DNA of 64,000 nt from an uncultured beta proteobacterium (GTDB taxonomy: Bacteria > Pseudomonadota > Gammaproteobacteria > Burkholderiales > Casimicrobiaceae). A program made the translations under genes and the position numbers. Shown here piece after piece: positions 34,998 to 60,572 of this stretch (the first letter of the stretch is position 1; each line of letters starts with the position of its first letter). The notes under the pieces are model-generated. The model saw nothing but the letters and a program-made list of their open reading frames with translations, had not been told where the DNA came from and ran no database searches. Where the stretch lies: contig CAVSDL010000008.1 in the NCBI GenBank assembly GCA_963726775.1, positions 105,063 to 169,062 on the forward strand, read 5' to 3'.

Positions 34998-35072
34998 TCA
35001 GGACACTCCCCCAGGCCTGTTCGCATTTGCCACTGCCTTACGTTCGTCCCACTCGAAACGAAGCGTGCTCAT
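34998..35072 (-). pseudogene. Truncated BrnT-like toxin fragment
   Basis: MSTLRFEWDERKAVANANRPGGVS followed by a stop. It matches the conserved BrnT N-terminus (FEWDe.KA..N..KHGVSF) but ends after 24 codons. Confidence 0.4.
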
Positions 35073-35080
35073 ACCGAGAC

Positions 35081-35102
35081 TATAACTACATATATAGTTA
35101 TA
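35081..35102. promoter_or_regulatory. AT-rich perfect palindrome (operator-like) just upstream of the BrnT-like fragment
   Basis: tataacta catata tagttata has 8-bp perfect arms. It lies 9 nt upstream of the fragment ATG and is the most AT-rich spot in the window. Confidence 0.3.
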
Positions 35103-36393: not shown

Positions 36394-36422
36394 CGTCGGG
36401 TCCTGGAATCGTGCAGTGGCGA

Positions 36423-38837: not shown

Positions 38838-39111
38838 TCGAAGGGCTCTCTTTGGAATAAGCTCAGACTCGACTTTTCAACGGCGCAAAGCGTTGGGCCG
38901 GCGCGCGATCGCAATAAGTCGAATCTGACCCTCGTTCCGCTCGTTCCGCGCAATCTCAATCTTGCCGCGCAGCGCCGCTGCTCGCGGATGGCGTCGAATC
39001 TAGCACACAACGCGAACGGATCCTCAACGACCTTCGTCCGCGCTCTCCACGCGGCCGCATCGAGGTCGCAAATTGATCGCTGCGGAATTGCGCGATACCT
39101 GTCGCATAACG

Positions 39112-39254
39112 TGATGGTCGTCCTCGCGAACGCGGGAACCCGGCGACGTTTGACGCAACACTCTGGAGGGCTGCTCCTCGAAACTTCGCCGCTCACGCGG
39201 CTCGTTTTCCCGCGCCCGCAGAACGACGACACTTCTGCGGCCGTTGTCACTCGA
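39112..39254 (+). repeat. Intergenic palindromic repeat, family 1, copy B
   Basis: tgatggtcgtcctcgcgaacgcgggaaccc ... ctcgaaacttcgccgctcacgcggctcgttttcccgcgcccgcagaacgacgacacttctgcggccgttgtcactcgat. It aligns with copies A and C in the same orientation. Confidence 0.75.
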
Positions 39255-39423
39255 TGCGGTAGCGCTCGGTAGGGGCATTTTTTTACCGGTCGCGACGTTG
39301 CTTCGGGAATGGCGTCGAAATACAAAGCGGCGTCGCATACGGACCAGCCGCAGCATCGTCCCCTCACCATACTTCCGGCGACGTCCGCGTTGTGATTCCG
39401 GATGTCCGAAAACAGGAGAGCCC

Positions 39424-40992
39424 ATGGACGAGCAGCCGGCAGTCTCGCCGCGCACCCACCGCGCCGGCGGCCGCGAAGCCAAGCGCGCCGCCCGATCGGC
39501 GCGCGCCGGACTGGCGATGCCCTACATCACGCGCAAGATCGGCTACTACGAGGTGCTCGACGAAGAAGGCCTCGCGCTAATCGAGCGCAACGCCGATACC
39601 ATCCTGGCCGAAATCGGCATCGATTTCCGCGGCGATGCGGAAGCGCTGGACATCTGGAAGGCCGCCGGGGCGGATGTGCAGGGCGAGCGCGTGCGCTTTC
39701 CGCCGGGCCTGTGCCGCAGCATCGTCAAGGCGACCACGCCGTGCGATTTCGTGCAGCACGCGCGCAATCCGGCGCGCAGCGTTCCCATCGGCGGCAAGCA
39801 CACCGTTTTCGCGCCGTCCTACGGCTCCCCGTTCGTGCGCAGCCTCGACGACGGCCGACGCTACGCAACGATCGAGGACTTCCGCAACTTCGTGAAGCTT
39901 GCCTACCTGGCGCCGTCGCTGCACCACTCGGGCGGCACGATCTGCGAGCCGGTCGACCTGCCCGTGAACAAGCGCCATCTCGACATGGTGTACAGCCACA
40001 TGAAGTACAGCGACAAGCCGTTCATGGGGTCGGTGACGCACCCCGAACGGGCGCAGGATTCGGTCGAGATGGCGCGGATCCTGTTCGGGGACGATTTCAT
40101 CGATCCCGCGACCGGCAAGCCGAAGACGGTGATCATCAACCTGATCAACGCGAACTCGCCGCTGACCTTTGATGCCACGATGCTCGGCGCCCTCAAGGTT
40201 TATGCGCGCGCCAACCAGGCGTGCATCGTCACGCCGTTCATCCTCGCCGGCGCGATGTCGCCGGTCACGGTGGCCGGCACGACGGCGCAGACGCTCGCCG
40301 AAGCGCTGGCCGGCATGGCGTTCATCCAGCTCGTCGCCCCCGGGGCGCCCGCGGTCCTCGGAAGCTTCGCCTCGTCGCTGTCGATGCAATCCGGCGCGCC
40401 GACGTTCGGCTCGCCCGAGCCGGCGCTGGTGCTCTACGCGATGGCCGCGCTCGCCCGGCGCCTGGGGGTGCCATTTCGGTCGGGCGGCGCGCTGTGCGGC
40501 TCGAAGATCTCCGACGCCCAGGCGGCCTACGAGTCCGCAAATACGCTCGTTCCGACGTGCCTTGCCGGCGTCAATTTCGTGCTGCACACCGCGGGCTGGC
40601 TCGAGGGCGGCCTCGCGATGGGGTACGAGAAGTTCGTCATGGATGTCGACCAGGCGGGAATGATGCACACGCTGCTCGCCGGTGTCGACTTGTCCGAGAA
40701 CGGGCAGGCGATGGGCGCGATCCGCGAAGTCGGCCCCGGCAAGCATTTTCTCGGCTGCGCGCACACGCAGGCCAATTTCGAGACGGCGTTCTACCGGTCG
40801 CCGATCGCCGACAACAACAGCTACGAGCAGTGGGAAGCCGAGGGCAGCCAGGACTTGACGCAGCGCGCCAATACGAGCTGGAAGAAGCAACTCGCAGCGT
40901 ACGAAGCCCCGCCGCTCGATCCCGCCGTCGACGAGGCGCTGCAGGACTACATGAATCGCCGCAAGGCATCGTTTCCGGACTCGAAGTTCTGA
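39424..40992 (+). CDS. MttB-superfamily methyltransferase without pyrrolysine (quaternary amine:corrinoid methyltransferase candidate, MtgB-like)
   Basis: ORF 39244..40992 trimmed to the ATG at 39424 (MDEQPAVSPR...). It is MttB-like over its full length (YEVLDEEGLALIERNADTILAEIGIDF...SPLTFDATMLGALKVYARANQACIVTPFILAGAMSPVT...). There is no in-frame TAG. Confidence 0.85.
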   Translation: MDEQPAVSPRTHRAGGREAKRAARSARAGLAMPYITRKIGYYEVLDEEGLALIERNADTILAEIGIDFRGDAEALDIWKAAGADVQGERVRFPPGLCRSIVKATTPCDFVQHARNPARSVPIGGKHTVFAPSYGSPFVRSLDDGRRYATIEDFRNFVKLAYLAPSLHHSGGTICEPVDLPVNKRHLDMVYSHMKYSDKPFMGSVTHPERAQDSVEMARILFGDDFIDPATGKPKTVIINLINANSPLTFDATMLGALKVYARANQACIVTPFILAGAMSPVTVAGTTAQTLAEALAGMAFIQLVAPGAPAVLGSFASSLSMQSGAPTFGSPEPALVLYAMAALARRLGVPFRSGGALCGSKISDAQAAYESANTLVPTCLAGVNFVLHTAGWLEGGLAMGYEKFVMDVDQAGMMHTLLAGVDLSENGQAMGAIREVGPGKHFLGCAHTQANFETAFYRSPIADNNSYEQWEAEGSQDLTQRANTSWKKQLAAYEAPPLDPAVDEALQDYMNRRKASFPDSKF

Positions 40993-41033
40993 GTTGCCGC
41001 CCGCGAAACGATGGGCGCCTCATTGCTCCGATA

Positions 41034-42758
41034 TCAGCGTCGACGCCACGCCTGGGTCGTGCGATCGAGCCGGCGCGTAAGCAGGACATGGGCGATCTTC
41101 ACGGCGGTCGAGGTCGCGACAATGGTCATCGCCATCGCGGCGGCGGCGGCGGTGAAGCCGGATTCGTCCATGTTGATGATCGTGACCGAGGCGAGCTTGG
41201 TGTCCGTCGAATAGAGAAAGATCACGGCTGATACGGTGGTCATCGCGTTGACGAACAGGTAGATGCTGATGTCGAGCACGGCCGGCATGCAGATCGGCGC
41301 CGTCACTCTCGCCATCGTGCGCAGCAGCGAAACTTTCAGCGACGCGGACACGGACTCGAATTCGGTGTCGAGCTGCTTCAGCGCCGTGGTGGCTGTAAGG
41401 TGGCTGACCGTGTAGAAATGCGTGATCGAGTTGACCACCAGGATGATCATCGTCGCGTAGATGAAGCCGAGTGGATTGCTCTTCGCGTTGAAGAAAAAGA
41501 TGTAGGCGAGGCCGAGCACCAGGCCGGGCACCGCCATCGGCAGCATGGCCATGAACTGGGCGACGCCGCGCCCCCACGCGAAGCCGCGCGTCTTTTCCAG
41601 CAGATAGGCGCCCAGGAAGACAACGACGGTGCCGATCACGGCCGTCCACGACGCGAGGATCACCGAGTTCCAGTACGCGGCCCAGCCGTTGGTGTCGAAG
41701 TCGCCGAACGCGTAGTTCTTGAGCGTGAGCGCGAGGTTGTACGGCCAGCGGGTGACGACGGACCCCCAGGCGGCCGTGGCCAGCAGGACGAAGATCAAGC
41801 CGCCGACGACGGCGCAGAACGCGAACAGCCCCCAGTCCCGCCGCGGCTCCGGCTTGGGTTCCAGCGGCACGGCGCGCGCCGTCAGCAGCGCCACTTGGCG
41901 CCGCTGGATGATGCGGTCGGCGGCGAAGGCGGCCACCGCCGGGATCAGCAGGACGAAGCCAACCACCGCGCCCATCTCGAAATTCTGCTGGCCGATCACC
42001 TGCTTGAAGATGTCGGTGGCGAGCACGTTGAACTTCCCGCCGATGACCTTCGCGATGCCGAAATCGGTGATGACGAGCGTAAAGATGACGAAGCCCGCGC
42101 TCATCACGCCGTACTTGGCTCCGGGCAGAGTGACCGTGAAAAACACGCGCGTCTTGGAGGCGCCCAGCGCGTCGGCGGCCTCGTAGAGACGCGCATCGGC
42201 CATCGACAGCGAAGCGACCAGGATCATCATCGCGTGCGGGAAGCAGTAGAAGACCTGCGAGATCACGATGCCGATGGGGCCGTAGATCGAGCCGCCGAAC
42301 ATCAGGTCCTTGAGAAAACCCTGGTTGCCGAAAAGATAGATGAGCGATATCGACGGCAGCAAGGAGGGCGCCAGGATGGGAATCAGCGCCAGGGCCTGGA
42401 ACAGACCCTTCCAGCGGATGCAACTGCGCTGCAGCGCATAGGCGTAGACGAAGGCGAGCGGCAGCACGATCGCGGTGGAGAGTACGGCAATGAACAGGCT
42501 GTTCCACACCGAAGCAAACAGCGCCGGCGTGGAAAAATAGTGGATGTAGTTCGCAAGTCCGATGAATTCGCCGTTCTGGTTCTGGAAGCTCTTGGACAGG
42601 AGCGACCACAACGGCAGCAGCAGCGTGACCAGCATCCACCCGATCAGCAGGCCGATGCCCAGCCGCATCAGCACGTCGTCGCGGTCGAGCCGCCGGCGGG
42701 TCGCCGGAAACGATGCAGCGGCATTTGCGGCTGCGGCGGGTGCGGCCGCGCTCGTCAC
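41034..42758 (-). CDS. ABC transporter permease, fused two-domain type (Fe3+/2-aminoethylphosphonate/polyamine-like family)
   Basis: ORF 41034..42758 (574 aa) has about 12 TM helices and two repeated permease halves. Its start overlaps the ATPase stop (ATGA). Confidence 0.85.
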   Translation of the reverse strand: MTSAAAPAAAANAAASFPATRRRLDRDDVLMRLGIGLLIGWMLVTLLLPLWSLLSKSFQNQNGEFIGLANYIHYFSTPALFASVWNSLFIAVLSTAIVLPLAFVYAYALQRSCIRWKGLFQALALIPILAPSLLPSISLIYLFGNQGFLKDLMFGGSIYGPIGIVISQVFYCFPHAMMILVASLSMADARLYEAADALGASKTRVFFTVTLPGAKYGVMSAGFVIFTLVITDFGIAKVIGGKFNVLATDIFKQVIGQQNFEMGAVVGFVLLIPAVAAFAADRIIQRRQVALLTARAVPLEPKPEPRRDWGLFAFCAVVGGLIFVLLATAAWGSVVTRWPYNLALTLKNYAFGDFDTNGWAAYWNSVILASWTAVIGTVVVFLGAYLLEKTRGFAWGRGVAQFMAMLPMAVPGLVLGLAYIFFFNAKSNPLGFIYATMIILVVNSITHFYTVSHLTATTALKQLDTEFESVSASLKVSLLRTMARVTAPICMPAVLDISIYLFVNAMTTVSAVIFLYSTDTKLASVTIINMDESGFTAAAAAMAMTIVATSTAVKIAHVLLTRRLDRTTQAWRRR

Positions 42759-43864
42759 GGTTCCTGCGGCGCGCGGGGAAACACCCGGAGCCGGTCCGGC
42801 GGCAGCGCGATCAGCATCTCCTTGCCTTCGACGATCGAGAGATCGCGCACGACGTTGATCGAGAAATCGGCCACCAGCGCGGGGTCCGTGCCGTCGATCG
42901 AGAGGCCCACGCGGCAGAACGATCCCAGGAACTCGATCTCGGCAACGCGCGCCGTGAACGTGTTGGGATGGGTGGGGACGACGTTACGCACCACCACGTC
43001 CTCGGGCCGGATCGCCAGCGTGACGTCGTGGCCGGCGCCCGGGCGAACGTCCAGTTCGCAGGCGAGATCGATCTTGCCGAAGCGCACCTGGCCGGGTCCG
43101 ATCACCACGGCCGGCAGGAAATTGGTGGTGCCGACGAAATCGGCGACAAACGCGCTGGCGGGCTTGCGGTACACCTCGGTCGGCGTGCCGATCTGCTCGA
43201 TCACGCCCTCGTTCATCACCACGATGCGATCGGCCATCGTGAGCGCCTCTTCCTGGTCGTGCGTCACCATGATCGTGGTGACGCCCAGGCGCTGGTGCAG
43301 GCGGCGGATCTCGATGCGCAGATAGGCGCGCACGCGCGCGTCCAGCGCACTCAACGGTTCGTCGAGGAGCAGCAGGCCGGGCGACAGCGCGAGGGCGCGG
43401 GCCACGGCCACACGCTGCTGCTGGCCACCGGAAAGCTGGGCCGGATACTTGCGTCCGGAATCGGGCAAGCCGACGAGCCGCAGCAGATCGACGACGCGCG
43501 TGGCGATCTCGACCCTGGGCAGCCCGTGACTGACGAGGCCATACCCCACATTGGCGGCCACCGTGAGGTTCGGGAACAACGCGTAGGACTGGAAGACGAT
43601 GCCGAAATCGCGGCGCGACGCGGGCAGGTCCGAGATTTCCTTGTCGGCCTGAAAGATACGGCCCGAGGTCTGGATGTCGAGTCCGGCGATCGCGCGCAGC
43701 AGCGTCGTCTTGCCGCAGCCGGACGGTCCGAGGAAACACACGAACTCCCCCGGAAAGATATCGAGGGAGATGTCCTTCAGCGCGAAAAACGAACCGAACC
43801 GCTTCGTCAGCCGCTCGATCCGCAGGTACGGGACGCCGTTCGCCTTGACGCTCTCTTCAGGCAT
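42755..43864 (-). CDS. ABC transporter ATP-binding protein (PotA/FbpC-like with C-terminal regulatory domain)
   Basis: Motifs: Walker [12 protein letters not shown], signature [14 protein letters not shown], Walker [13 protein letters not shown]. Confidence 0.9.
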
Positions 43865-43947
43865 GGCAACAAATGCGGCCCGCGCCCTTCGCCATTTGCG
43901 AAGGCGAGGGCCGCATCGTTTCTACGCGCAATGCTCGGTCGCGGGCC

Positions 43948-44985
43948 TTACTTCGGCGCGGACTTGGTGTCGTAGCGCTTGGTCCACTCGGCCAGAATCT
44001 TCGCGCGCTCCTGGCCCATAACGGCGAGATCGATCTTGACCATCGCCGCGTCGGCGGAGGGCGGATAGTTCGGCGGCGCGGGATTCAGGCCGGGATAGCC
44101 GACGATCGCGTAGTACTTGCCGTAGAGCTCGTAGGCACCCTTGGTGACCGCAAAATCCGCGAGCTTCTGCGCCGCCGCCAGGTTCTTGGTCCCTTTGAGT
44201 ATCGCCGTGGCTTCCATGTCCCACGGCGCGCCTTCCTTGGCCAGGATGATGTCGATCGGCGCGCCGCCGGTCTTCTCCTTGGCGCCGCGCATGTCGAAGC
44301 CGATGCCGATCACGCGCTCGCCCTTCGCGGCCTGCACGCACGGGGCCGAACCCGAATGCGTATACACCGCGATGTTCTGGTGCAGCTTGTCCATGAATTC
44401 CCAGGCCGCCTTTTCGCCCATGATCTGGATCCAGGCATAGACCGCCTGGTACCCCGTCCCCGACGAGGCCGGGTTGGGCATCACGATCGAATCCTTGTAG
44501 ACCGGGTTGGCGAGATCGGTCCACGACGCCGGCTTGGGCAGGTTCTTCTTGCCGCCTTCGACGGTGTTGTAGCACATGACCGCGAGCCACGCGTCCAGTC
44601 CGGTCCAGGTGACCGGGTTCTTGCTGCTGCGGAACGTCGGCTTCACCTGGTCCACGCCCTTCGGCGTGTAGCCTTCGAGCAGGCCCATCGAATCGAACAG
44701 CGCGATGCTGGACGCGCCCAGGCCCCAGATGACGTCGGCGCGCGGGTTGTCCTTCTCCGCCAGCACCCGTGCCGTGACCACGCCCGTCGAGTCGCGGACC
44801 CAGGCAATTTCCACGTCGGGATTCACGGCCTCGAAGGCCTGCTTGTAGGGCCCGAGTTGGTCCGGTTCGAGCGCGGTGTAGACCGTGATCTTGGTCTTTT
44901 GCGCGAAAGCCGGGCCGGCGATCAATGCCGCGATGGCGATGGCAGCCGCGCCGGCAATCAGGCTGCGTAGAGTGGATTTGAACAT
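43948..44985 (-). CDS. ABC transporter periplasmic substrate-binding protein (Fe3+/2-aminoethylphosphonate-type family)
   Basis: The signal peptide is MFKSTLRSLIAGAAAIAIAALIAGPAFAQ. The mature part begins KITVYTALEPDQLGPYKQAFEA..., typical of this SBP family. Confidence 0.85.
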   Translation of the reverse strand: MFKSTLRSLIAGAAAIAIAALIAGPAFAQKTKITVYTALEPDQLGPYKQAFEAVNPDVEIAWVRDSTGVVTARVLAEKDNPRADVIWGLGASSIALFDSMGLLEGYTPKGVDQVKPTFRSSKNPVTWTGLDAWLAVMCYNTVEGGKKNLPKPASWTDLANPVYKDSIVMPNPASSGTGYQAVYAWIQIMGEKAAWEFMDKLHQNIAVYTHSGSAPCVQAAKGERVIGIGFDMRGAKEKTGGAPIDIILAKEGAPWDMEATAILKGTKNLAAAQKLADFAVTKGAYELYGKYYAIVGYPGLNPAPPNYPPSADAAMVKIDLAVMGQERAKILAEWTKRYDTKSAPK

Positions 44986-45201
44986 TGCAAGGCCTCCTCA
45001 GTAGTGAACTCGACTGGCACCGAACTGATCGCACAAGCCGGCCCAGGTTTCCCCGTCCGCCATTCCACCCGAAACGGAGGGGACAGTAAAGCGAATTGAT
45101 AAGCAATCCACCCGTTTCTCGCGCTCCGGCAGGGGGCACCCACGGGGTGGGAAGGCGACCGAGAGCGATCCGGCCGCTGGGCATGGCATGCCAATCCGAC
45201 C

Positions 45202-46257
45202 TTATCGGCGATCCTGTGGCCGCTGGCCGCGCCGGCGCGCCGGGCCGGCGCCGGGGGCGGCACCCGCCTGGCGACCGAGATCGCCGCGCCATTGCGCGAG
45301 CGCGCCGCTGGAAACCTCGCCAAGCGTCGCCACGACCTTCTCGAGGTCGGGGCGCGGGCCTCGCACATGCGTCTCCAATGCATCGCGCATTGCGCGAATG
45401 TGTTCCGGGGTCGTGCCGCAGCAGCCGCCGATGATGCGCGCTCCGGCGTCCAGGGCGAGCCGCGCATAGTTCGACATCAGCTCCGGCGTGCCGTCGTAGC
45501 GGATGGCGCCGTCGACGTACTGCGGGATTCCACAGTTGGCTTTGGCGACCAGTATGGCGTCGGACCCGGCGGCGGTGGCGAGATTGAGGATGCACGCCAC
45601 GACCTCGGATGCGCCTACGCCGCAGTTGGCCCCGCAGGCCATCGGGCCCGGCGTGAAGGCGCGGACCAGCGCGGCAAGCTCGGCGGGCGCCATGCCCATC
45701 ATCGTCCGGCCGTTGGTGTCGAAGCTCATCGTGCAAATAACGGGCAGTCCCGTACTGGCGGCGCCCTCGATGGCCGCTTCCGCTTCATCGCGCGCCGACA
45801 TCGTCTCGATCCACAGGATATCCACGCCGCCTCGCGCGAGCGCAGCGGCCTGTGCGGCAAAGGCCTCCCGCGCGGCGTCGAAATCCAGCGTGCCGAGCGG
45901 TGCCATGATCTCACCGGTCGGCCCCATGCTCCCGGCGACCACGATGCTGCGCTCGCTCGCGTCGGCTGCCTCGCGCGCGATCCGCGCGGCGGCTTCGTTC
46001 AGTTCCGCGACGCGCATCTCCGCCTTGTGCAAGGTGAGCCGAAAGCGGTTGCCGCCAAAGCTGTTGGTCAGGATGATGTCGGCGCCCGCGGCGATGAAGC
46101 GGCGGTGCAGGTCGGCGATGCGATCCGGGTGGTCGCTGTTCCACCGCTCCGGCGCGTCGCCGGAGACGAGTCCCGCCGCGAAAAGATTGCTGCCGGTGGC
46201 GCCATCGGCGAGGAGCCACGGACGGGTCAGGAGCAGGGTGGTGAGACGGTCTGACAT
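45202..46257 (-). CDS. Stand-alone homocysteine S-methyltransferase domain protein (BHMT / MetH N-terminal domain-like)
   Basis: ORF 45202..46257 has LLADGATGSNLF and the zinc-ligand contexts ACGANCG and GGCCGTTPEHI, typical of the Hcy-binding (S-methyltransferase) domain. Confidence 0.8.
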   Translation of the reverse strand: MSDRLTTLLLTRPWLLADGATGSNLFAAGLVSGDAPERWNSDHPDRIADLHRRFIAAGADIILTNSFGGNRFRLTLHKAEMRVAELNEAAARIAREAADASERSIVVAGSMGPTGEIMAPLGTLDFDAAREAFAAQAAALARGGVDILWIETMSARDEAEAAIEGAASTGLPVICTMSFDTNGRTMMGMAPAELAALVRAFTPGPMACGANCGVGASEVVACILNLATAAGSDAILVAKANCGIPQYVDGAIRYDGTPELMSNYARLALDAGARIIGGCCGTTPEHIRAMRDALETHVRGPRPDLEKVVATLGEVSSGALAQWRGDLGRQAGAAPGAGPARRRGQRPQDRR

Positions 46258-46425
46258 CGTAGGGCGCAGGAAGCGCGCGGGTGTCGCGGTCGGGCCGCAC
46301 TCTGCGCCGCCGCCGGGTCGCGCAAACCCGAGTATGAGGCATCAAGCGCAAGCAGATGTGCAGCGTGTCGATGCCGCGGCGCTCCGTCGGCAACCGCGCT
46401 GACATGCATGGCTACCTCGTGGCCG

Positions 46426-47571
46426 CTAATACTTGAACTTGAGGTCCGTGCCGATCATGGTCAGTTCGACGAACCTGGAGCCGTTGTGATTCCTGGCCGA
46501 GAAATTCACGACGTAGCCGCCGGCATCGTAGCTCGACATGTTGTCGAGCGCTGTCATGAACGTCTCCCGAGTCAGGTTCGATCCGGCGCGCCGAATCGCC
46601 TCGACGACCACCTTGGCCGCGATGAACCCCTCGAGCGACGTAAACGAGTATTCCTGGGTACCGAGGAGCTTGTCGATTGCCGCCCGATACTCCGGCAGCA
46701 CGGGCACCGCGGTGAAGCTGGGTGAGGGCACGACCTGAGCGATGACGACACCGACACCATCCTTGCCGAGCTCCTTCGAGAGTGCCGTCGAGCCGGGGAA
46801 CGAATTGCTCACCATCTGCGCATTCGACCCCGCCTTGCGCGCCAATTTGATGAAATCGGAAGTCGCCTTGTAGAGGGTCGTGAGGATGATCACATCGGGG
46901 TCGCCCTTCAACACTTCCTTCACGCCCGCCTCGACGTCGGGCTTGGCGCGGTCCTTGAAGGCCGCTGCCGATACGGGGGAAAGTTTGCGCTCCTTCAGCG
47001 CGCGGTCCACCGCGGTATAGTTCTCCTTGCCGACGGCGTCATCGTAATGCACGATCGCGAACCGCTTGGTGCCGAAACGCGTGTAGTGGTCGACGATTTT
47101 TTCCAACTCGTCGGCGTAGCTCGCGCGCATGTTGTAAACGTACTTGTTGAAGGCGCGCATCGGGTCGGCGCCCGTGAACGGCGCAAGGAACGGCGCCTTG
47201 TGCTTCTCGACGAAGGGAAGCGCAGGTCGCGATAGCGTTGCGCTCGCATAACCAAACAGCGCCAGCACGCTATTTTCCTCGAGCAGTTTCCGGGTGTTCT
47301 CGCCGGAACGCTTGGTGTCGTTCGCGTCGTCGAGCGTGAGAAGTTCGATCCTGCGGCCGTTCACGCCGCCGGCTTCGTTGACTTTCTTGAAGTAGGCGAG
47401 CGCGCCGTTGCGGATGTCATCGCCCAGGCTTTTGTTGCTGCCTGAAAGCGGCGCCGATTGCCCCAGCAGGATGGTCGTGCTGGTGACGCCTTGCGGCTGC
47501 GCCGTACTTGCTGCAGCAAGCAGGATCAGCGCAAGGCTCAAATTGCATGCATTCACGGACGAGCGTGTCAT
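46426..47571 (-). CDS. Periplasmic substrate-binding protein, branched-chain amino acid (LivK)-type, orphan
   Basis: The signal peptide is MTRSSVNACNLSLALILLAAASTAQP. The fold is type I SBP (ILLGQSAPLSGSNKSLGDDIRNGALAYF). There are no adjacent permease or ATPase genes. Confidence 0.8.
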   Translation of the reverse strand: MTRSSVNACNLSLALILLAAASTAQPQGVTSTTILLGQSAPLSGSNKSLGDDIRNGALAYFKKVNEAGGVNGRRIELLTLDDANDTKRSGENTRKLLEENSVLALFGYASATLSRPALPFVEKHKAPFLAPFTGADPMRAFNKYVYNMRASYADELEKIVDHYTRFGTKRFAIVHYDDAVGKENYTAVDRALKERKLSPVSAAAFKDRAKPDVEAGVKEVLKGDPDVIILTTLYKATSDFIKLARKAGSNAQMVSNSFPGSTALSKELGKDGVGVVIAQVVPSPSFTAVPVLPEYRAAIDKLLGTQEYSFTSLEGFIAAKVVVEAIRRAGSNLTRETFMTALDNMSSYDAGGYVVNFSARNHNGSRFVELTMIGTDLKFKY

Positions 47572-47733
47572 CTATCCCCTGCCGCATCCAGATCATTGTT
47601 ACGGCATGCATTGTTTGTTGCGCCGCCAACGAATGTCAAGGCCGATTCGATTTGTCCGTCGGCAAGCCGCTGCCTGGTACGCGAGAAGGCACGGCGCAAC
47701 GAATCGACAAGACGTGGTGCGATGCCGCGCGCC

Positions 47734-49794
47734 CTACAGGCTGCGCACGGCGCCGCGTCTGCTGCGTCTGCCGGTGCTTTTCGCGGCGACCTGGGCGTTG
47801 GGCAGCGTCACCGCCGCGCGAAGCCGCGGAAATGGCGCGGTCAGGTGTGGAATCGCCATCGCGTCGACGAAGAATTCCTGGAACCGCGGCGCAACGGCGG
47901 TTTCGATTTTTTCGATCCGGCGCACCAGCTCTTCGATGGTGTTCCGGGCGCGCTGGTCGAGGAGCGCAATGCGGGCGCCGGTGCCCGCGGCGTTGCCGGC
48001 GGAGCTGACGCAATCCAGCGCGCAATCGGGGATCATGCCGAGCACCATCGCATACTTGACGTCGATGTGGCTGCCGAAGGCGCCGGCGAGGCGGATCCGG
48101 TCGACGCGATCGATCTGCAGGCATTCCATCAGCAGCCGCACGCCGGCGTAGAGCGCGGCCTTGGCGAGCTGGATGGCGCGCACGTCGTTCTGCGTGATGC
48201 GCAAGGGCGCGCGGCTGTCCGTGCCACGATGAAGCTCGTAGGAAAAGGTCCGACCGTCCGCGTGGATGCGCGGATTCTTCGCCATCAACTGGCCGTCGAT
48301 GACGCCGTCGTGGCGGATCACGCCGGCGAGATACAGCTCGGCGATGGCTTCGATGATGCCGGAGCCGCAGATGCCGGTCACGCCGCTCGCTGCGGTGGCC
48401 TCGGCGAATCCCGGCGCGTCGGACCACAGTTCGCAGCCGATCACCTTGACGCGCGGCTCCAGCGATTGCGGATCGATGCGCACGCGCTCGATCGCGCCCG
48501 GAGCCGCGCGCTGCCCGCAACCGATCTGCGCCCCTTCGAAGGCCGGTCCGGTGGGGCTGGAGCAGGCGAGCAGCCGCTTGCGGTTGCCGAGCACAATTTC
48601 CGCGTTGGTGCCGATGTCGACGAGCAGTGTCATGTCATCCGACAGATCGGGACGCTCGGCCAGCACGACACCGGCCGCGTCGGCGCCGACATGACCCGCG
48701 ATGCACGGCAGCACGTAGAGGCGCGCGTTGCGGTGAACCGCGAGATCGAGCTCCGTCGCCCACAACGTGAGCGCGGAATCGGTCGCCAGCGCGAACGGCG
48801 CGCCGCCGAGCTCGACCGGGCTGATCCCGAGCAGCAGGTGGTGCATGATCGGGTTGCCGACGAACGTTGCTTCGAGAATGTCCTCGCGCGCGATGCCCGC
48901 CTGGCGCGCCACGTCGGCGACGAGATCGTTGATCGCGGCGCGCACGATGTCGGTCAATTCCTTCTCCCCGCCGGGATTCATCATCACCCACGACACGCGG
49001 CTCATCAGGTCTTCGCCGAAGCGGATCTGCGGGTTCATCGCGCCGGCCGCCGCCACGACCTCGCCGCTCGAAAGGTCGCAGAGATGGGCGGCGACGGTCG
49101 TCGAGCCGACGTCGACAGCAATGCCATAGACGCGCTCGCGAAAGCCCGGCCAGACGGCGATGATCTGGCTACCGCCATGCACGGCCACCGTCACTTTCCA
49201 GCCGCCGCGGCGGAGCGCCGGTTGCAGTTGCTGGAGGACGCGCACGTCGCAGGCGAGTCCGGTCAGCCGCCATTCGAAATCGAGCGCGTCTTCCAGTCGG
49301 CGCAGGTCGCCGGAGGGGTCATGCATGTCCGGCGGCTGCACCTCGACGTAATGCAGGCGCACGACAGGATCGAGCTCGATGTCGTGTGCTTCGGCCGCCT
49401 TGCGCACGACCTGGCGGTGAACCTGGCTGTCGGGCGGCACGTCGATCACGACGTCGCCCAGCACCTGTGTCGAGCACGAGAGCCTGCGCCCGGGCGCCAT
49501 CGACTGCGTGCGGCAATATTCCTGTTCGACCGGCCCGAACGGTGACAGATTTTCGGCGCGCGACGTCACTCCATGCTTCGCGAAATGGCCTTCCGCAAGG
49601 AGAATCTGGCAGCGGCCGCACAGTCCGCGCCCGCCGCACACGGAATCGATGTCGACGCCCAGCGAACGCGCCGCCTGCAGCAGCGGCGTGCCGAGCGGAA
49701 CGCGCGCGCGGCGGCCTGAGGGCGTGAACACGACCAGCGCGTCCCGGTCGCCGGCCGGCAACTCCTGCGCCGCGCGTTTGACAGGCGCGGACAT
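47734..49794 (-). CDS. Corrinoid reductive activase (RACE-type: [2Fe-2S] ferredoxin domain + ASKHA ATPase domain)
   Basis: ORF 47734..49935 trimmed to the ATG at 49794 (MSAPVKRAAQ...), which overlaps the upstream stop. It has the plant-type ferredoxin Cys pattern CGGRGLCGRC...C. The ASKHA motifs are GIAVDVGSTTV and LLVDIGTNAEIV. Confidence 0.8.
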   Translation of the reverse strand: MSAPVKRAAQELPAGDRDALVVFTPSGRRARVPLGTPLLQAARSLGVDIDSVCGGRGLCGRCQILLAEGHFAKHGVTSRAENLSPFGPVEQEYCRTQSMAPGRRLSCSTQVLGDVVIDVPPDSQVHRQVVRKAAEAHDIELDPVVRLHYVEVQPPDMHDPSGDLRRLEDALDFEWRLTGLACDVRVLQQLQPALRRGGWKVTVAVHGGSQIIAVWPGFRERVYGIAVDVGSTTVAAHLCDLSSGEVVAAAGAMNPQIRFGEDLMSRVSWVMMNPGGEKELTDIVRAAINDLVADVARQAGIAREDILEATFVGNPIMHHLLLGISPVELGGAPFALATDSALTLWATELDLAVHRNARLYVLPCIAGHVGADAAGVVLAERPDLSDDMTLLVDIGTNAEIVLGNRKRLLACSSPTGPAFEGAQIGCGQRAAPGAIERVRIDPQSLEPRVKVIGCELWSDAPGFAEATAASGVTGICGSGIIEAIAELYLAGVIRHDGVIDGQLMAKNPRIHADGRTFSYELHRGTDSRAPLRITQNDVRAIQLAKAALYAGVRLLMECLQIDRVDRIRLAGAFGSHIDVKYAMVLGMIPDCALDCVSSAGNAAGTGARIALLDQRARNTIEELVRRIEKIETAVAPRFQEFFVDAMAIPHLTAPFPRLRAAVTLPNAQVAAKSTGRRSRRGAVRSL

Positions 49795-50705
49795 CAGGCG
49801 CGCCGCCGCCGTCCGACCTCGCGCCGCCCGCGCGCGGCTTCGCCGTCGGCGCCGGCGACGGGCGTCTCGCGGAACTTGCGTATCCACTGCGTGCAGTCCG
49901 GATCGTGCCCCATCATCACGTCGGCGGCCAGGCACGCCTTGACGATCTCAGGGTGCAGCGGATTGGTGATCGCCGAGGTCATCCCCGAGGCGATGGCCAT
50001 CGTGAGGAACGCGGTATTGATGCCTTCGCGCTGCGGCAGGCCGAAGCTGATGTTGGACGCGCCGCAGGTCGTATTGACCTTGAGCTCGTTGCGCAGGCGG
50101 TGCACCAGTTGCATCACCTGCACGCCTGCCAATCGCACCGCGCCGATCGGCATCACCAGCGGATCGATGACGATGTCGCATGCGGGGATACCGTGATCGG
50201 CGGCGCGCTCTACGATCTTCTTCGCCACCACAAAGCGGACATCCGGATCCTGCGAGATGCCGGTCTCGTCGTTGGATATGGCGACGACCGCGGCGCCGTA
50301 TCTCCGGACCAGTGGCAGCACGCTCTCCATTCGTTCTTCTTCGCCGGTCACCGAGTTGACCAGCGCCTTGCCGCGATACGCCGCAAGCCCCGCTTCGAGC
50401 GCGGCGACGATCGAGGAATCGATGGAGAGCGGCACATCGGTCACCGACTGCACCAGCCGGATGGCCTGAGCGAGGATCGCGGGCTCGTCGGCCAGCGGAA
50501 TGCCGGCGTTGACGTCGAGCATGTGCGCGCCGGCCTCCACCTGCGCGAGGGCATCCGCCGTCACGCGGCTGAAGTCGCCAGCGGCCATCTCCGCAGCGAG
50601 GATCTTGCGCCCGGTCGGATTGATGCGTTCACCGATGATCACGAACGGCCGCTCGAAGCCGATGACGGCCTCGCGGGTGGCGGAACTGACGACGGTATCG
50701 GTCAC
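49794..50705 (-). CDS. Methyltetrahydrofolate:corrinoid methyltransferase (pterin-binding domain protein, MetH/AcsE/MtgA-like)
   Basis: ORF 49794..50705 has IIGERINPTGRK, MLDVNAG, LSIDSS and ALVNSV, typical of the pterin-binding TIM barrel. Confidence 0.8.
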   Translation of the reverse strand: MTDTVVSSATREAVIGFERPFVIIGERINPTGRKILAAEMAAGDFSRVTADALAQVEAGAHMLDVNAGIPLADEPAILAQAIRLVQSVTDVPLSIDSSIVAALEAGLAAYRGKALVNSVTGEEERMESVLPLVRRYGAAVVAISNDETGISQDPDVRFVVAKKIVERAADHGIPACDIVIDPLVMPIGAVRLAGVQVMQLVHRLRNELKVNTTCGASNISFGLPQREGINTAFLTMAIASGMTSAITNPLHPEIVKACLAADVMMGHDPDCTQWIRKFRETPVAGADGEAARGRREVGRRRRA

Positions 50706-51721
50706 GAAGCTTCCTTTTCGGGTTGCAGTTCGCGGTCGCGACCGGGGTACCAGGGCACGCGGCCGCCCAGCACGCCGGACTTCGCGATCACTTCAGCCAC
50801 GGCTTCTTCCTGCCGGTAGGCCATCACGTGAACGCCGCGCACGCCCTTGATATCGCGGATCTGCTGGACGAGTTCCACGCAGAGATTGCGGCCTTCCAGG
50901 GCCTGATTATCGGCGCCGGCGATGCGTTTGACGATTTCGTCCGGGATATGGACACCGGGTACATGGGTGCGCATCCACAAGGCGGCCTTTGCCGAGCGCA
51001 GCGGTCCCACGCCGACGAGGATGAACACCTTGTCGAGGAGGCCCAGATCGTCGACCTTCTGCATGAATGACTTGAGAAGCGGCAGGTCGTAGCAGTACTG
51101 CGTCTGGATGAACTGCGCGCCCGCGGCCACTTTTTTCGCGAGCCGGTGGGGACGCCACTCTGACGGCAACGCGAACGGATTCTCCGCCGCGCCGAAGAAG
51201 ACGCGTGGCGCATGGGTAAGCGGACGTCCGCTCTGGAACCGGCGGGCGTCGCGCAGCGTCACGCCGATGTCGAGCAGCGTCATGCAATCGAGGTCGAACA
51301 CCGGTTTCGCCTGCGGATGGTCGCCTGCCTGCACGCCGTCCCCGGTCAGGCATAGCATGTTGCACACACCCATCGCCGCGCCGCCCAGAATGTCGCCCTG
51401 GATCGCGATCCGGTTCCGGTCGCGGCACGAGATCTGCATCACCGGGGCGTATCCGATGCGCGTCAACAGCGCGCAGACGGCGAGGCTCGACATGTGGCAG
51501 TTGGCGCCGCTGCCGTCGGTCGCGTTGATCGCGTCGACATAGCCGTCGAAAACGCGCGCGCGCCGGTACACGTCGTCGGGATCGGCGGAGTCCGGGGGAT
51601 CGAGTTCGGTCGTGACCGCGAACGCACCGGCGCGCAGCACGCGCTCGAGGCGCCCCGGCGAGGTATGACCCGGCAGGATCGGCAACGGGTAGCCCGGCAC
51701 CGGCTCATCTTCGAATCTCAT
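50702..51721 (-). CDS. metF: Methylenetetrahydrofolate reductase (MetF-like)
   Basis: ORF 50702..52378 trimmed to the ATG at 51721 (MRFEDEPVPG...), which overlaps the upstream stop (ATGA). It is MTHFR-like: FAVTTELDPPD, VDAINATDG, ISCRDRN, AGAQFIQTQYCYD. Confidence 0.78.
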   Translation of the reverse strand: MRFEDEPVPGYPLPILPGHTSPGRLERVLRAGAFAVTTELDPPDSADPDDVYRRARVFDGYVDAINATDGSGANCHMSSLAVCALLTRIGYAPVMQISCRDRNRIAIQGDILGGAAMGVCNMLCLTGDGVQAGDHPQAKPVFDLDCMTLLDIGVTLRDARRFQSGRPLTHAPRVFFGAAENPFALPSEWRPHRLAKKVAAGAQFIQTQYCYDLPLLKSFMQKVDDLGLLDKVFILVGVGPLRSAKAALWMRTHVPGVHIPDEIVKRIAGADNQALEGRNLCVELVQQIRDIKGVRGVHVMAYRQEEAVAEVIAKSGVLGGRVPWYPGRDRELQPEKEAS

Positions 51722-52191
51722 GGCTGCCCCGCGGCGCGTTTCGCGGCAATCGCGCGCGCCGCCTGCAACCACGACGAGCGTCCTTCGAGCCTGCGGTCCA
51801 CCGCGAACTGCACGATGTGGACCGCGGCGCTTCCTTCGCGCATCCGCGTGCTGCCGGCGATCGCCTCGACCCAGACGCATTGCATCTGCGGATCGACTTC
51901 GCATCGGCCATCGGCGCGCACGCCGCCGCAAGGCCCGTTGCGCAGCTGCTTGGGGCAGTTCATCGGGCAGGACATGCCGGTCGCGCCCAGCACGCACTGG
52001 CCGCACATCCGGCAGTCGAAAAGCAGGCCCTTGACCACGCGCTCGAGGGCGGCGACGGGCCGCTCGAGCCGCGCGTAGCCGAGCCACGTCCAAACCGGAC
52101 CCAGGGCGACGAGCACCATTTCGAACAGGCGATAGCAGGTCTCCAGTCCACGGGCGTGGCGCACCGACCAGTGGCGCACGGCGAGCGTCAT
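51718..52191 (-). CDS. Methylenetetrahydrofolate reductase C-terminal-like zinc-ribbon protein (MetV-like)
   Basis: ORF 51718..52707 trimmed to the ATG at 52191 (MTLAVRHW...). It has a Cys-rich core CRMCGQCVLGATGMSCPMNCPKQLRNGPCGG and sits directly upstream of the metF-like gene. Confidence 0.65.
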   Translation of the reverse strand: MTLAVRHWSVRHARGLETCYRLFEMVLVALGPVWTWLGYARLERPVAALERVVKGLLFDCRMCGQCVLGATGMSCPMNCPKQLRNGPCGGVRADGRCEVDPQMQCVWVEAIAGSTRMREGSAAVHIVQFAVDRRLEGRSSWLQAARAIAAKRAAGQP

Positions 52192-52526
52192 TGCCCATCC
52201 TGTAATCCGGGAGCTGCCGGCGCGGCACTTTCTTCGATGCCGTGGGCGCGAATGAGCCGCTCGAGGTCGGCGTCGCTGTAGAGCGCCTCGAGTCGCGCGA
52301 CTTCGGTGCGGGCTTCGGCGTCGAGGTCTTCGCCGCAGGGGCGCGGCGTACTGCGCTTCCAGTCGGCGATGTAGGCATCCGAGCTGCCCTTGCCGGCGCG
52401 CATGGCGGCGCGATCGACGGCTTCCTGAAAGCGTGGCGACAGCTGCACGCGGGTCGTTTCGCGGCCCCGTTGTACGACGACCTGGGAGGGAACGTCGCGC
52501 CAGGAGATGACGATCAGCTTGGCCAT
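52188..52526 (-). CDS. Small conserved protein of the so-called virulence factor family that accompanies corrinoid methyltransferase operons
   Basis: ORF 52188..52658 trimmed to the ATG at 52526 (MAKLIVISWRDVPSQVVVQRGRETTRVQLSPRFQEAVDRAAMRAG...). The call rests on position and my recollection of this family, so confidence is moderate. Confidence 0.5.
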   Translation of the reverse strand: MAKLIVISWRDVPSQVVVQRGRETTRVQLSPRFQEAVDRAAMRAGKGSSDAYIADWKRSTPRPCGEDLDAEARTEVARLEALYSDADLERLIRAHGIEESAAPAAPGLQDGQ

Positions 52527-53131
52527 GGGCGCACGGCGCCAATTGTGGCGCGAAGGCTCCGTTCGAGCCCGCCGTAACCCGTGCGGCGGGATTCGAAGGC
52601 AAGCCCCAGGCGGCCAGCGGCGGCGCGCGCCGCGTCGATCCGCTCCGGCGTCTCGCATTGAGCCAGGTAGACGAGCCGCCGGTAGTTGCCAAAATACTGC
52701 TCGGCAAGCTCGGGATGGCGGTCGAGGCCGAGGCCGCGAATCACCAGCCGATCGAAGTGACGCAGCAGAAAATCGGTGACGTAAAAGGTGCCCGGCTCGT
52801 CCTCGGCCAGCGCCGCGAACTCAGCGGAGCCGGCAAAGAATTCATAGCAATGGGCGCCGGGGATCCGTTCCACGCCTTCCTGTGCCAGCACCGCGTCGAG
52901 CAGGCCGCCGGTGCCGCAGTCGCCATACGCGACAAATATCGAAGCGTAGCGACCGCGGTTGGCGCGTATCTTGTCGCGCACGGCGCTGGGGATGCGCTGC
53001 GGATGGTTGTGCAATTCCGCGGGCAGGCACTGCACGTCGAGATGCCGCCAGTCATTGGCCGCACGCAAGGCGGCGATCTCCCGGGCCAGCGCGCCGCAGG
53101 CGATCACGAGCACGGCAGGTGGGTAGCCCAT
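52514..53131 (-). CDS. DUF1638 domain protein (corrinoid-system accessory)
   Basis: ORF 52514..53131: LVIACGALAREI...LPAELHNHPQRIP...VAYGDCGTGGLLD...YVTDFLLRHFD. It lies immediately downstream of the corrinoid protein, as is usual for this family. Confidence 0.7.
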   Translation of the reverse strand: MGYPPAVLVIACGALAREIAALRAANDWRHLDVQCLPAELHNHPQRIPSAVRDKIRANRGRYASIFVAYGDCGTGGLLDAVLAQEGVERIPGAHCYEFFAGSAEFAALAEDEPGTFYVTDFLLRHFDRLVIRGLGLDRHPELAEQYFGNYRRLVYLAQCETPERIDAARAAAGRLGLAFESRRTGYGGLERSLRATIGAVRPWPS

Positions 53132-53146
53132 GGGCGGAGCGGCCGG

Positions 53147-53881
53147 TCAAGCCGCAGCGCGGGCCGCGCGGCGCGCGGCGATAAGCGACTTGGCGGTTTC
53201 CACCGCGATGGCGGCGTCGCGGCAGTAGGCATCGGCGCCGACCGCCTTGCCGAACGCCTCGTTCAGCGGAGCTCCGCCGACCAGCACGATGTAGTCTTCG
53301 CGGATCCCCTGGTCCTTGAGCGTGTCGATCACCACTTTCATGTACGGCATCGTCGTGGTGAGAAGCGCCGACAGGCCGAGGATGTCGGGCTTGTGCTTTT
53401 CCAGCGCTTCGAGGTACTTCTCGACCGGATTGTTGATGCCGAGGTCGATCACCTCGAATCCGGCGCCTTCCATCATCATCGAGACCAGGTTCTTGCCGAT
53501 GTCGTGGATGTCGCCTTTGACCGTGCCGATCACCATCTTGCCGATCGGCTCGACGCCGGTTTCGGCGAGCAGCGGCCGCAGGATCTCCATGCCGCCCTTC
53601 ATCGAATTGGCGGCCAGCAGCACCTCGGGCACGAACAGGATGCCGTCCCGGAAATCGATGCCGACGATGCGCATGCCCTCGACGAGCGCGTCGTTCAGGA
53701 CGCGATCCGCGGACCAGCCCCGCGCCAGCAGGATATTCGTCGCCTCGCAGACCTCGGCGCGGAGGCCGTTGTAGAGATCGTCGTGGACCTGCAGAACGAG
53801 TTCCTCGTCGTTGAGGCTGTTGAGGTCCAGATCGTCTTCAAGGTTGTCGGGCACTCGGTTCTCCGTTCGCTCGTCCACCAC
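53147..53881 (-). CDS. Cobalamin-binding corrinoid protein (MtgC/MtbC-like)
   Basis: ORF 53147..53980. It has the B12-binding cap helix domain and a Rossmann domain with the DxHxxG motif (GDIHDIGKN), plus SALLTTTM. The start is probably GTG 53881 (GGAG upstream); the alternative is ATG 53980. Confidence 0.85.
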   Translation of the reverse strand: MVDERTENRVPDNLEDDLDLNSLNDEELVLQVHDDLYNGLRAEVCEATNILLARGWSADRVLNDALVEGMRIVGIDFRDGILFVPEVLLAANSMKGGMEILRPLLAETGVEPIGKMVIGTVKGDIHDIGKNLVSMMMEGAGFEVIDLGINNPVEKYLEALEKHKPDILGLSALLTTTMPYMKVVIDTLKDQGIREDYIVLVGGAPLNEAFGKAVGADAYCRDAAIAVETAKSLIAARRAARAAA

Positions 53882-56669: not shown

Positions 56670-56720
56670 CGCTGCGCATGCCATTGATCATTGCCTGACT
56701 GGGTGACGCTTCCGCAAGTA

Positions 56721-56826
56721 TGATCGTCGTTCCCGCGAACGCGGGGACCCAGAGACGTGATGCAAGCCACTGGATTCCCGCGTTCGCGGGAACGACGATA
56801 CTTCTGCGACCGTTGTCACTCAATTC
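56721..56826 (+). repeat. Intergenic palindromic repeat, family 1, copy C (short form)
   Basis: tgatcgtcgttcccgcgaacgcggggaccc...attcccgcgttcgcgggaacgacgatacttctgcgaccgttgtcactcaat. It contains the inverted pair cgtcgttcccgcgaacgcgg / ccgcgttcgcgggaacgacg and lacks the 35-nt block of copies A and B. Confidence 0.75.
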
Positions 56827-56835
56827 GGTAATCGA

Positions 56836-60532: not shown

Positions 60533-60572
60533 GGCGAAATCCGTTCTAGCAGGTCATTGAGAAAAACACGAT

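Follow-up and report, generated by a model that had tools for sequence, protein, structure and literature searches.

The DNA examined here raises the question of whether a proteobacterial betaine island can encode a corrinoid-dependent route for the demethylation of quaternary amines, and, if so, which amine is its substrate and where the methyl group goes. The window, by which we mean the whole 64-kb stretch of DNA analyzed (GC ~66%), contains the locus in question at positions 39424–53881. Genes were called as open reading frames (ORFs) guided by third-position GC (GC3) and by Pfam and NCBIfam scans, which placed 13 genes in that interval. We estimate a probability of about 0.8, from sequence comparisons, that the locus is an MtgBCDE-type cobalamin-dependent methyltransferase system with a dual function in a betaproteobacterium. 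The original prediction, made from the DNA letters, had proposed a complete corrinoid-dependent system that moves methyl groups from a quaternary amine to tetrahydrofolate (THF) and has its own reductive activase. All of these parts are present, and the ORF calls and domain scans recovered the listed genes at the positions given for them. Its count of nine relevant genes did not hold, as it named eight gene types in an interval of 13 genes, and its inventory left out an orphan Peripla_BP_6 protein, a three-gene PhnS2T2U2-type transporter and a PF02574 gene (45202–46257) lying within its own coordinates. The last of these omissions matters most, since the presence of the PF02574 gene would make the locus both a betaine demethylase and a split methionine synthase.

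The core of the locus is a run of seven genes on the minus strand. It begins with mtgC (53147–53854), encoding a corrinoid protein with PF02607 and PF02310 domains that would act as the shared methyl carrier, followed by genes for a DUF1638 protein (52514–53131; PF07796, 104 bits), a small PF13769 “Virulence_fact” protein (52188–52526; 89 bits) that is a conserved operon member, and a MetV-like, Cys-rich protein (51718–52191; PF12225, 90 bits) that is the predicted partner of MetF2. The remaining three genes are metF2 itself (50702–51721; PF02219, 105 bits), for a methylene-THF reductase of the acetogen/Firmicute type, mtgD (49794–50705; PF00809), for a pterin-binding methyl-THF:corrinoid methyltransferase expected to work in both directions, and the gene for a RACo/RamA-like reductive activase (47734–49794; PF00111, PF17650, PF17651 and PF14574), here referred to as RACo. 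All seven overlap or abut, with spacings of −13 to +15 nt that imply co-translation: the metV-like gene has an ATGA overlap at either side, metF2 is directly upstream of mtgD with a 4-nt overlap, and the RACo start shares a TGATG overlap with the mtgD stop codon.

A RACo query against 185,579 species-representative genomes returned 48 loci, and the order mtgC-DUF1638-PF13769-metV-metF2-mtgD-RACo was found again in dozens of them, spanning three proteobacterial classes (beta-, alpha- and gammaproteobacteria, including SUP05/Thioglobus). This arrangement is far beyond chance. The PF13769 protein keeps its place in the loci of beta- and alphaproteobacteria, and an orthologous mtgB (62–89% identity) usually adjoins the seven-gene operon in the proteobacterial loci. 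The nearest RACo loci were in metagenome-assembled genomes of uncultured betaproteobacteria of soil/freshwater type (85–91% RACo identity, 81–87% nucleotide identity) and the second-nearest in Comamonadaceae (~80%); the host, on sequence grounds, is a betaproteobacterium.

Two further clusters were informative. That of Sinorhizobium meliloti is syntenic with the window genes and has the identical gene families in a matching neighborhood, and its proteins are 70% (MtgB), 74% (MtgC), 64% (MtgD), 66% (MetF2), 59% (RACo), 54% (DUF1638) and 55% (Bmt/MtgE) identical to those of the window. The cultured Azoarcus sp. KH32C has the same seven-gene operon on a megaplasmid at 69–86% identity (MtgC 86%, MetF2 81%), where its neighbors are genes for ProV-type betaine transport, purU, a GlxA/GbdR-type regulator, DMGDH with ETF, and betB. 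In a megablast search against plasmids only partial matches were found, the best being to Azoarcus pAZKH (77% over 6 kb), and the window is therefore not a segment of a known plasmid.

The methyltransferase that would start the pathway is encoded by mtgB (39424–40992, plus strand), the only PF06253 gene found in the window (769 bits). An identical 522-residue product is present in the protein database. As the original prediction had it, this member of the MttB superfamily is of the non-pyrrolysine type: its open frame has no internal stop, hence no UAG in frame, and the residue opposite the pyrrolysine (X334) of Methanosarcina barkeri MttB (7XCL) is Leu357. The protein scored 260 bits against the model for pyrrolysine-containing MttB (TIGR02369), whose cut-off is 525. 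Its matches in the PDB were an S. meliloti protein (4YYC, 791 bits), Desulfitobacterium hafniense MtgB (DhMtgB; 2QNE/9YCE, 420 bits) and pyrrolysine MttB (7XCL, 121 bits). An assignment as a pyrrolysine-type trimethylamine methyltransferase was considered and rejected on the basis of Leu357, the lack of a UAG and the score of 260 against 525 bits. The homologue search with MtgB yielded at least 8000 scored homologues. The 120 matches listed are near-identical proteins of environmental origin, all at least 81% identical; those with a name are called “trimethylamine--corrinoid protein Co-methyltransferase” or “trimethylamine methyltransferase (family protein)”, and on proteins that have no pyrrolysine these labels look like systematic mis-annotation.

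The substrate of MtgB can be approached through the glycine betaine site of DhMtgB, which has been defined by mutagenesis and a ligand-bound structure (Picking et al. 2026, PMC13080624). In that enzyme the cation-pi contacts come from Y97 and F356, and the carboxylate is bound by R312 and H348. R312 and, to some extent, H348 recur in MtcB, MtpB, MthB and MtyB, and the enzymes for carnitine, proline betaine, butyrobetaine and phosphocholine share them; the same does not hold for the aromatic pair (PMC13080624). We compared these positions residue by residue in an alignment of 2QNE with the window protein and 21 orthologues from proteobacteria; in 2QNE all four reference positions fall on the expected Y, R, H and F. 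Three of the four, Y133, R352 and H389 in the window protein (Y97, R312 and H348 in DhMtgB), were invariant in all 22 sequences. The fourth, F356, is Gly in the window protein and in 21/21 orthologues. An invariant Trp, W392 in the window protein, is found at the position of DhMtgB I352, four residues before this Gly (G396), so that the proteobacterial motif reads HxAGWLEGGL vs HTAGILQYFM in DhMtgB, and this Trp would presumably supply the second aromatic face in place of F356. Since three of the four binding residues, the island context and orthology all favor it, glycine betaine is the likeliest substrate of MtgB, with odds that we place somewhat above even; it is not established, but the original prediction that the substrate was not deducible was too pessimistic.

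The explanation that competes best with this one keeps the same architecture and has the MttB homologue act on another quaternary amine, such as proline betaine, carnitine, gamma-butyrobetaine or an N-methylated aminoethylphosphonate, while betaine is handled by another enzyme. The change of F356 to Gly and of the motif around it is consistent with such a shift, and R312 is not confined to betaine enzymes, nor is H348, which is kept less strictly. Up to seven PF06253 paralogues occur per genome and are presumed to have different substrates (PMC12478193), and a Rieske demethylase of the GbcA/Stc2 family adjoins the locus. The phosphonate candidate is suggested by a transporter encoded on the minus strand between the operon and mtgB. 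It consists of a PhnU2-type ABC permease with a fused double domain (41034–42758; PF00528; TIGR03262, 782 bits, cut-off 593), an ABC ATPase with a TOBE domain (42755–43864; PF00005, PF08402), whose gene overlaps the permease gene by 4 nt, and a PhnS2-type periplasmic binding protein (43948–44985; PF13343; TIGR03261, 445 bits, cut-off 393). This PhnS2T2U2-type transporter (41034–44985) is kept at the same place beside the mtg operon in genus-level relatives, and its homologues, which are 52–61% identical (the binding protein 52%), adjoin phnW/phnA/phnY in Aminobacter and Roseateles plasmids.

Against another substrate is the observation that the enzymes that do not act on betaine do not keep the aromatic pair, whereas here Y97 is invariant and an invariant Trp is present one helical turn from the F356 position. 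In addition, S. meliloti, Inquilinaceae and SUP05 genomes have an mtgB of the same orthologue group (62–74% identity) physically joined to mtgC but no PhnS2 transporter, and the single PF06253 gene of the window is situated in an island with BetAB, GbdR-like, DMGDH-like and Sox genes. None of the phosphonate-catabolic genes phnW, phnA, phnX and phnY was found among the window ORFs scanned. With the transporter kept beside the mtg operon in relatives, this suggests that a transporter of the aminoethylphosphonate type was recruited for a different, possibly quaternary-amine, substrate. We consider an MtgB substrate other than glycine betaine unlikely, but deserving of serious weight.

The MtgBCDE-type assignment also depends on the proteins that would receive the methyl group from MtgB. 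MtgC has the DxHxxG motif (DIHDIG) at residue 115. Its gene has two in-frame alternatives to the start at 53854, a GTG at 53881, which the original prediction had chosen, and 53980; the 235-residue form agrees with the Azoarcus orthologue. Scores for MtgC were below the cut-offs of the models for MtgC of anaerobes (NF047996, 205 vs 370; NF047995, 164 vs 310) and reached only ~98 bits against MetH domains, and judged by domains, identity and scores it fits the proteobacterial type of stand-alone protein with a B12 cap and a B12-binding domain. MtgD scored above the cut-off of NF005719 (363 bits, cut-off 259), and its PDB matches were the methyltransferase MeTr (2YCI, 152 bits), the folate domain of Thermotoga maritima MetH (TmMetH; 145 bits) and D. 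hafniense MT2DH (143 bits). D. hafniense MtgA (6SJ8/6SK4), which is itself only 13% identical to MT2DH, was not retrieved by this PDB sequence search. The best NCBIfam match of MetF2 was the MTHFR half of NF006396.

RACo residues 22–653 align with residues 6–623 of Carboxydothermus hydrogenoformans RACo (3ZYY, 334 bits), a full-length match. The domain set is complete, comprising an N-terminal [2Fe-2S] ferredoxin with the motif C54-x5-C60-x2-C63...C95, a linker, a middle domain and a C-terminal ASKHA ATPase. Its score against the AcsV model was 402 bits with a cut-off of 800, and by sequence it classifies as a member of the RACo family, below the level of an AcsV equivalog. In the DUF1638 protein C12, C35, C72, C95, H41 and H94 are kept in at least 95% of 37 orthologues from beta-, alpha- and gammaproteobacteria, and the MetV-like protein has eight invariant Cys (60, 63, 66, 75, 79, 88, 97 and 105) in 24 orthologues; both are probably metal or Fe-S proteins. 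This conservation of Cys is absent from the discussion in PMC12478193 and PMC5764234. PDB sequence searches with the DUF1638 and PF13769 proteins gave empty or insignificant results. An AlphaFold model of DUF1638 (shallow alignment, pLDDT 75) had no Foldseek match in the PDB at E<1e-3 (TM at most ~0.4), and the model would represent a generic alpha/beta fold that says nothing more on function.

The PF02574 gene missing from the original inventory is mtgE (45202–46257, minus strand; 232 bits), for a homocysteine S-methyltransferase module that is elsewhere called Bmt or BHMT. It would be possible to read this protein as a stand-alone betaine-homocysteine S-methyltransferase that carries out the first demethylation without corrinoid proteins. 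In line with this, it scored 481 bits against NF005718 (“betaine--homocysteine S-methyltransferase”, cut-off 338), it is 55% identical to S. meliloti Bmt, and its Zn site is intact, with C212, C279 and C280 aligned to the Zn ligands C207, C272 and C273 of TmMetH. NF005718, however, has as its type member an S. meliloti protein to which Mausz et al. (PNAS 2025, PMC12478193) give a new interpretation: the S. meliloti MtgBCDE and reactivation genes are co-located, “Bmt” is taken to be MtgE, homologues of this type are without the betaine-binding residues of human BHMT, and a bmt mutant still grows on betaine when methionine is supplied (PMC12478193). The window protein itself matched the homocysteine domain of T. 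maritima MetH (1Q7M) at 145 bits vs 81 for human BHMT, and the Phaeobacter orthologue is a module of a methionine synthase that requires the B12 protein (PMC5764234). Based on these findings, a corrinoid-independent first step appears quite improbable.

If MtgE belongs to a methionine synthase, the opposite simplification should also be considered, in which the core operon is a split B12-dependent methionine synthase and its activase with no catabolic role, and the MttB homologue is unconnected to it. Price et al. (PLoS Genet 2018, PMC5764234) define these families purely as methionine-synthesis genes, and 12 kb separate mtgB from mtgC, which lies on the other strand. A classical MetH is not encoded in these pieces, as the domains are on three separate genes that scored 144–160 bits per piece against TIGR02082 vs 1011, and no MetH reactivation domain (PF02965) was found in any ORF scanned within the window. 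Several observations argue against a purely biosynthetic operon. A biosynthetic MetH needs no dedicated second MetF/MetV pair, mtgB directly adjoins mtgC in many other lineages, and the operons of Azoarcus and Comamonadaceae sit among genes for betaine transport, BetAB, DMGDH and GbdR-type regulators. The sole part specific to methionine, mtgE, is also the least tightly linked gene. In aerobic Ruegeria pomeroyi, MtgC and MtgD are each required for methionine synthesis and for growth on betaine; the knockouts are methionine auxotrophs that lose the use of betaine even with methionine added (PMC12478193). A system confined to methionine synthesis is therefore very improbable. That MtgB is a trimethylamine methyltransferase, the name attached to nearly all of the close homologues listed (“trimethylamine--corrinoid protein Co-methyltransferase”), can be dismissed given Leu357 in place of pyrrolysine, no in-frame UAG, a TIGR02369 score far under the cut-off, the far better match to DhMtgB than to pyrrolysine MttB, and the presence of the carboxylate-binding Arg/His pair of the betaine enzyme.

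In the favored MtgBCDE-type reading the gene content, domains, catalytic motifs, S. meliloti orthology and operon conservation are observations, and the chemistry of each step is what we infer from characterized homologues. The substrate of MtgB would be a quaternary amine with a carboxylate, most probably glycine betaine, from which one N-methyl group would go to the Co(I) form of MtgC, giving dimethylglycine and CH3-Co(III)-MtgC. MtgD would pass the methyl group from MtgC to THF, and MetF2 with its Cys-rich MetV-like partner would convert methyl-THF to methylene-THF for one-carbon oxidation or assimilation, while the two DMGDH-like enzymes on the flanks, together with SoxB, would take off the remaining methyl groups. 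Running anabolically, MtgD would load MtgC from methyl-THF and MtgE would methylate homocysteine to methionine. Cofactor that had become oxidized to Co(II) would be re-reduced by the RACo/RamA-like activase using ATP and an electron passed through its [2Fe-2S] domain, and the DUF1638 protein, with its four invariant Cys, may assist activation by some route. The dual role itself would follow from the genetics of R. pomeroyi and Phaeobacter inhibens.

Several points weigh against this reading. The first is the MtgB pocket: the replacement of F356 by Gly throughout the proteobacterial clade means that it differs from that of the only structurally defined MtgB, and in DhMtgB the F356L substitution raised the Km ~800-fold (PMC13080624). 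The second is the precedent, as MtgB was assigned in R. pomeroyi by proteomic induction and not by mutants or enzyme assays (PMC12478193), and the link between the window proteins and those of R. pomeroyi runs via S. meliloti. The embedded transporter is of the aminoethylphosphonate type and is no known betaine importer. Finally, mtgE is parted from the core operon by an unrelated binding-protein gene and gaps of 160–220 nt and is not at this position in the closest relatives, so that its coupling to the core operon in this genome is one that we infer.

The system that the locus most resembles is MtgBCDE of R. pomeroyi and S. meliloti. Betaine-induced proteins of R. pomeroyi are MtgB1 and MtgB2 (PF06253), MetF2, a RamA-like protein and a DUF1638 protein, and its homocysteine module MtgE is a PF02574 protein (PMC12478193). 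The window matches this set family by family: PF06253 MtgB, MtgC, PF00809 MtgD, PF02574 MtgE, MetF2, a RamA-like activase and DUF1638, with genes for dimethylglycine and sarcosine demethylation nearby in both cases. The differences are in host and arrangement. The host here is betaproteobacterial, whereas the paper of Mausz et al. and its supplements cover Alpha-, Gamma- and Deltaproteobacteria and do not mention Betaproteobacteria. All of the parts, including mtgE and the activase, are within 14.5 kb, whereas those of R. pomeroyi are scattered; the MetV-like and PF13769 genes, which that paper does not discuss, are constant members of the operon; an ABC transporter of the aminoethylphosphonate type is embedded; and a GbcA/Stc2-family Rieske oxygenase adjoins. 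With the P. inhibens three-part methionine synthase, which needs RamA-like and DUF1638 proteins (PMC5764234), the locus shares the families of the homocysteine methyltransferase, the pterin-binding and B12-binding proteins, the activase with ferredoxin and DUF4445 domains, and DUF1638, and in neither case is a MetH reactivation domain present in any of the five proteins. This comparison is by family and not by sequence. Unlike the Phaeobacter genes, those of the window cluster with an MttB homologue, a MetF/MetV pair and betaine genes, which argues for a catabolic role as well.

The original prediction had compared the locus to the MtgB/MtgC/MtgA system “known from anaerobic Firmicutes”, a statement that is out of date given the aerobe R. 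pomeroyi, S. meliloti (PMC12478193) and Phaeobacter (PMC5764234). The comparison is nevertheless useful. In D. hafniense (and for MtgB of Methanolobus vulcani) methyl groups likewise pass from a quaternary amine to a Co(I) corrinoid protein and on to THF, the window MtgB is a true homologue (420 bits) with Y97, R312 and H348 kept, and both systems need an ATP-dependent activase. The genes are not the orthologous set of parts, as the THF methyltransferase is MeTr/MetH-like and the corrinoid protein is below the MtgC cut-offs. The window system also differs in having Gly for F356, an MtgD of the MeTr/MetH-folate family, an extra homocysteine branch and a host unlike the obligately anaerobic Firmicutes and methanogens. 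By sequence comparison, then, the reaction logic is shared with the Firmicute system and two of its three proteins are not orthologous. The Wood-Ljungdahl pathway offers the full-length match of RACo to 3ZYY, MeTr (2YCI) as the best solved relative of MtgD, and an acetogen-type MetF2/MetV pair. Its carrier is the CoFeSP heterodimer, whereas here a small B12 protein of the Rossmann type, with His-on DxHxxG ligation, carries the methyl group; the window system has no CODH/ACS, and the proposed flux is from methyl-THF toward oxidation. Pyrrolysine MttB of Methanosarcina belongs to the same PF06253 superfamily with a TIM-barrel fold and, like the window protein, would methylate its cognate corrinoid protein, but the window MtgB is set apart from it by Leu357 in place of a UAG/Pyl codon, by a score of only 121 bits and by a carboxylate-binding Arg/His pair.

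The surroundings of the locus form a choline/betaine catabolic island in a high-GC Gram-negative genome, as the original prediction had stated. Two DMGDH/sarcosine-dehydrogenase-like enzymes with FAD and folate-binding domains (both PF01266, PF16350, PF01571 and PF08669) flank the mtg genes. The first (36423–38837, minus strand) is divergent from mtgB; the second (54213–56669, plus strand, start ATG at 54213) is divergent from mtgC and 81% identical to a DMGDH-like gene of Azoarcus pAZKH. Further right are betA (58865–60553, minus strand; GMC oxidoreductase domain) and betB (60672–62255, minus strand; Aldedh domain), for the conversion of choline to betaine, a gene for a GbdR-like AraC/DJ-1 regulator (62401–63537, plus strand; PF12833, PF01965; NF052371, 431 bits, cut-off 480) and soxB (63518–64000, plus strand), for the beta subunit of sarcosine oxidase, a gene that runs off the end of the window (TIGR01373, 248 bits over the first 133 model positions).

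The original prediction also placed the O2-dependent route side by side with the corrinoid system. The genes it referred to are present, but the claim was overstated. The Rieske non-heme-iron oxygenase (35128–36420, minus strand; PF00355, PF00848) is of the N-demethylase type and GbcA/Stc2 family, and its closest solved relatives include stachydrine demethylase (Stc2, 3VCA, 257 bits). A bona fide GbcA was rejected for this protein based on its score against NF058607 (366 bits, cut-off 670), and no reductase partner was seen among the window ORFs examined. The DMGDH-like enzymes and BetA are dehydrogenases, and a direct need for O2 applies to SoxB and the Rieske enzyme only.

The region between RACo and the ABC transporter genes (45202–47571) was a variable spot when compared with the related loci L001, L017, L027 and L043. 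The closest relatives have 0.3–7 kb there, in which neither mtgE nor the orphan binding-protein gene was detected; in L043 mtgE is instead located after the ABC permease. The orphan gene (46426–47571, minus strand) encodes a Leu/Ile/Val-type binding protein (Peripla_BP_6; PF13458, 173 bits), is absent at this position in the closest relatives and has its own promoter-like site (47639–47610, 10/12 matches). Its membership in the system is uncertain. This site was the one −35/−10 match that stood out in promoter and terminator scans of 38.5–54.5 kb, which were otherwise at about background.

No part of the window had an Rfam match at gathering thresholds, and the lack of a cobalamin or SAM riboswitch leaves none to support regulation by B12 or methionine. 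No tRNAs were found in the window. A search for a shared operator in the intergenic regions of the island found instead a repeated REP/MITE-like palindrome of ~110–150 bp, present as two direct copies (39100–39265 and 56700–56830) that are 78% identical apart from a 39-bp indel and have the core TCCCGCGAACGCGGGA (5 matches vs 0.49 expected). The copies lie upstream of mtgB and downstream of the second DMGDH gene and bracket a 17.6-kb segment with the mtg genes. To the left, between the malic-enzyme and Rieske genes, is a spacer (33680–35100) with GC of ~0.5–0.6 vs 0.66 for the window, no strong coding signal and no Rfam match at E<=0.1. By eye, its small minus-strand ORFs resemble SRPBCC/AHSA1-like (33755–34201) and HNH-type nuclease (34362–34691) genes and toxin-antitoxin fragments, and it is probably a remnant of foreign DNA. 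Positions 1–33604 are unrelated to betaine and include ccm cytochrome-c maturation genes, prolyl oligopeptidase, RIO kinase, malic enzyme, a 2-oxoacid:ferredoxin oxidoreductase cluster (10012–14677), multiheme cytochromes (17815–19563 and 27395–28768), a 1984-residue ORF with LVIVD repeats (21444–27398) and a cNMP-binding/Fer4 flavoprotein (28832–31246). The genes of this left half hint that the host may live as a facultative anaerobe and may have a supply of low-potential electrons.

A more speculative extension combines these elements. In this betaproteobacterial lineage MtgBCD, MetF2/MetV and the two DMGDH paralogues could form a self-contained route from glycine betaine to glycine that is independent of O2, with the PhnS2T2U2-type transporter importing a quaternary amine or a methylated aminophosphonate accepted by the variant Gly/Trp pocket of MtgB, and the four-Cys DUF1638 protein serving as a metal or Fe-S redox partner that feeds RACo. 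We think it doubtful that this combination is correct; if it were, betaine could support the growth of a facultative anaerobe or denitrifier in the absence of O2.

The MtgBCDE system was described in marine bacteria in 2025 and the locus opens no new category. What is new is the betaproteobacterial host, the full co-location of the parts and the embedded transporter of the aminoethylphosphonate type, together with the variant MtgB pocket and the conserved accessory genes that have not been studied. The compactness of the locus, at 14.5 kb, would offer a convenient cassette for reconstitution, and genetics might be done in cultured organisms with the core operon, such as Azoarcus sp. KH32C. The DUF1638, PF13769 and MetV-like proteins are defined targets for work on how an aerobe keeps a Co(I) enzyme active. 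If the MtgBCDE-type assignment is correct, the B12-dependent link between betaine and methionine would not be confined to marine Alpha-, Gamma- and Deltaproteobacteria, but would be common in soil and freshwater Betaproteobacteria too.

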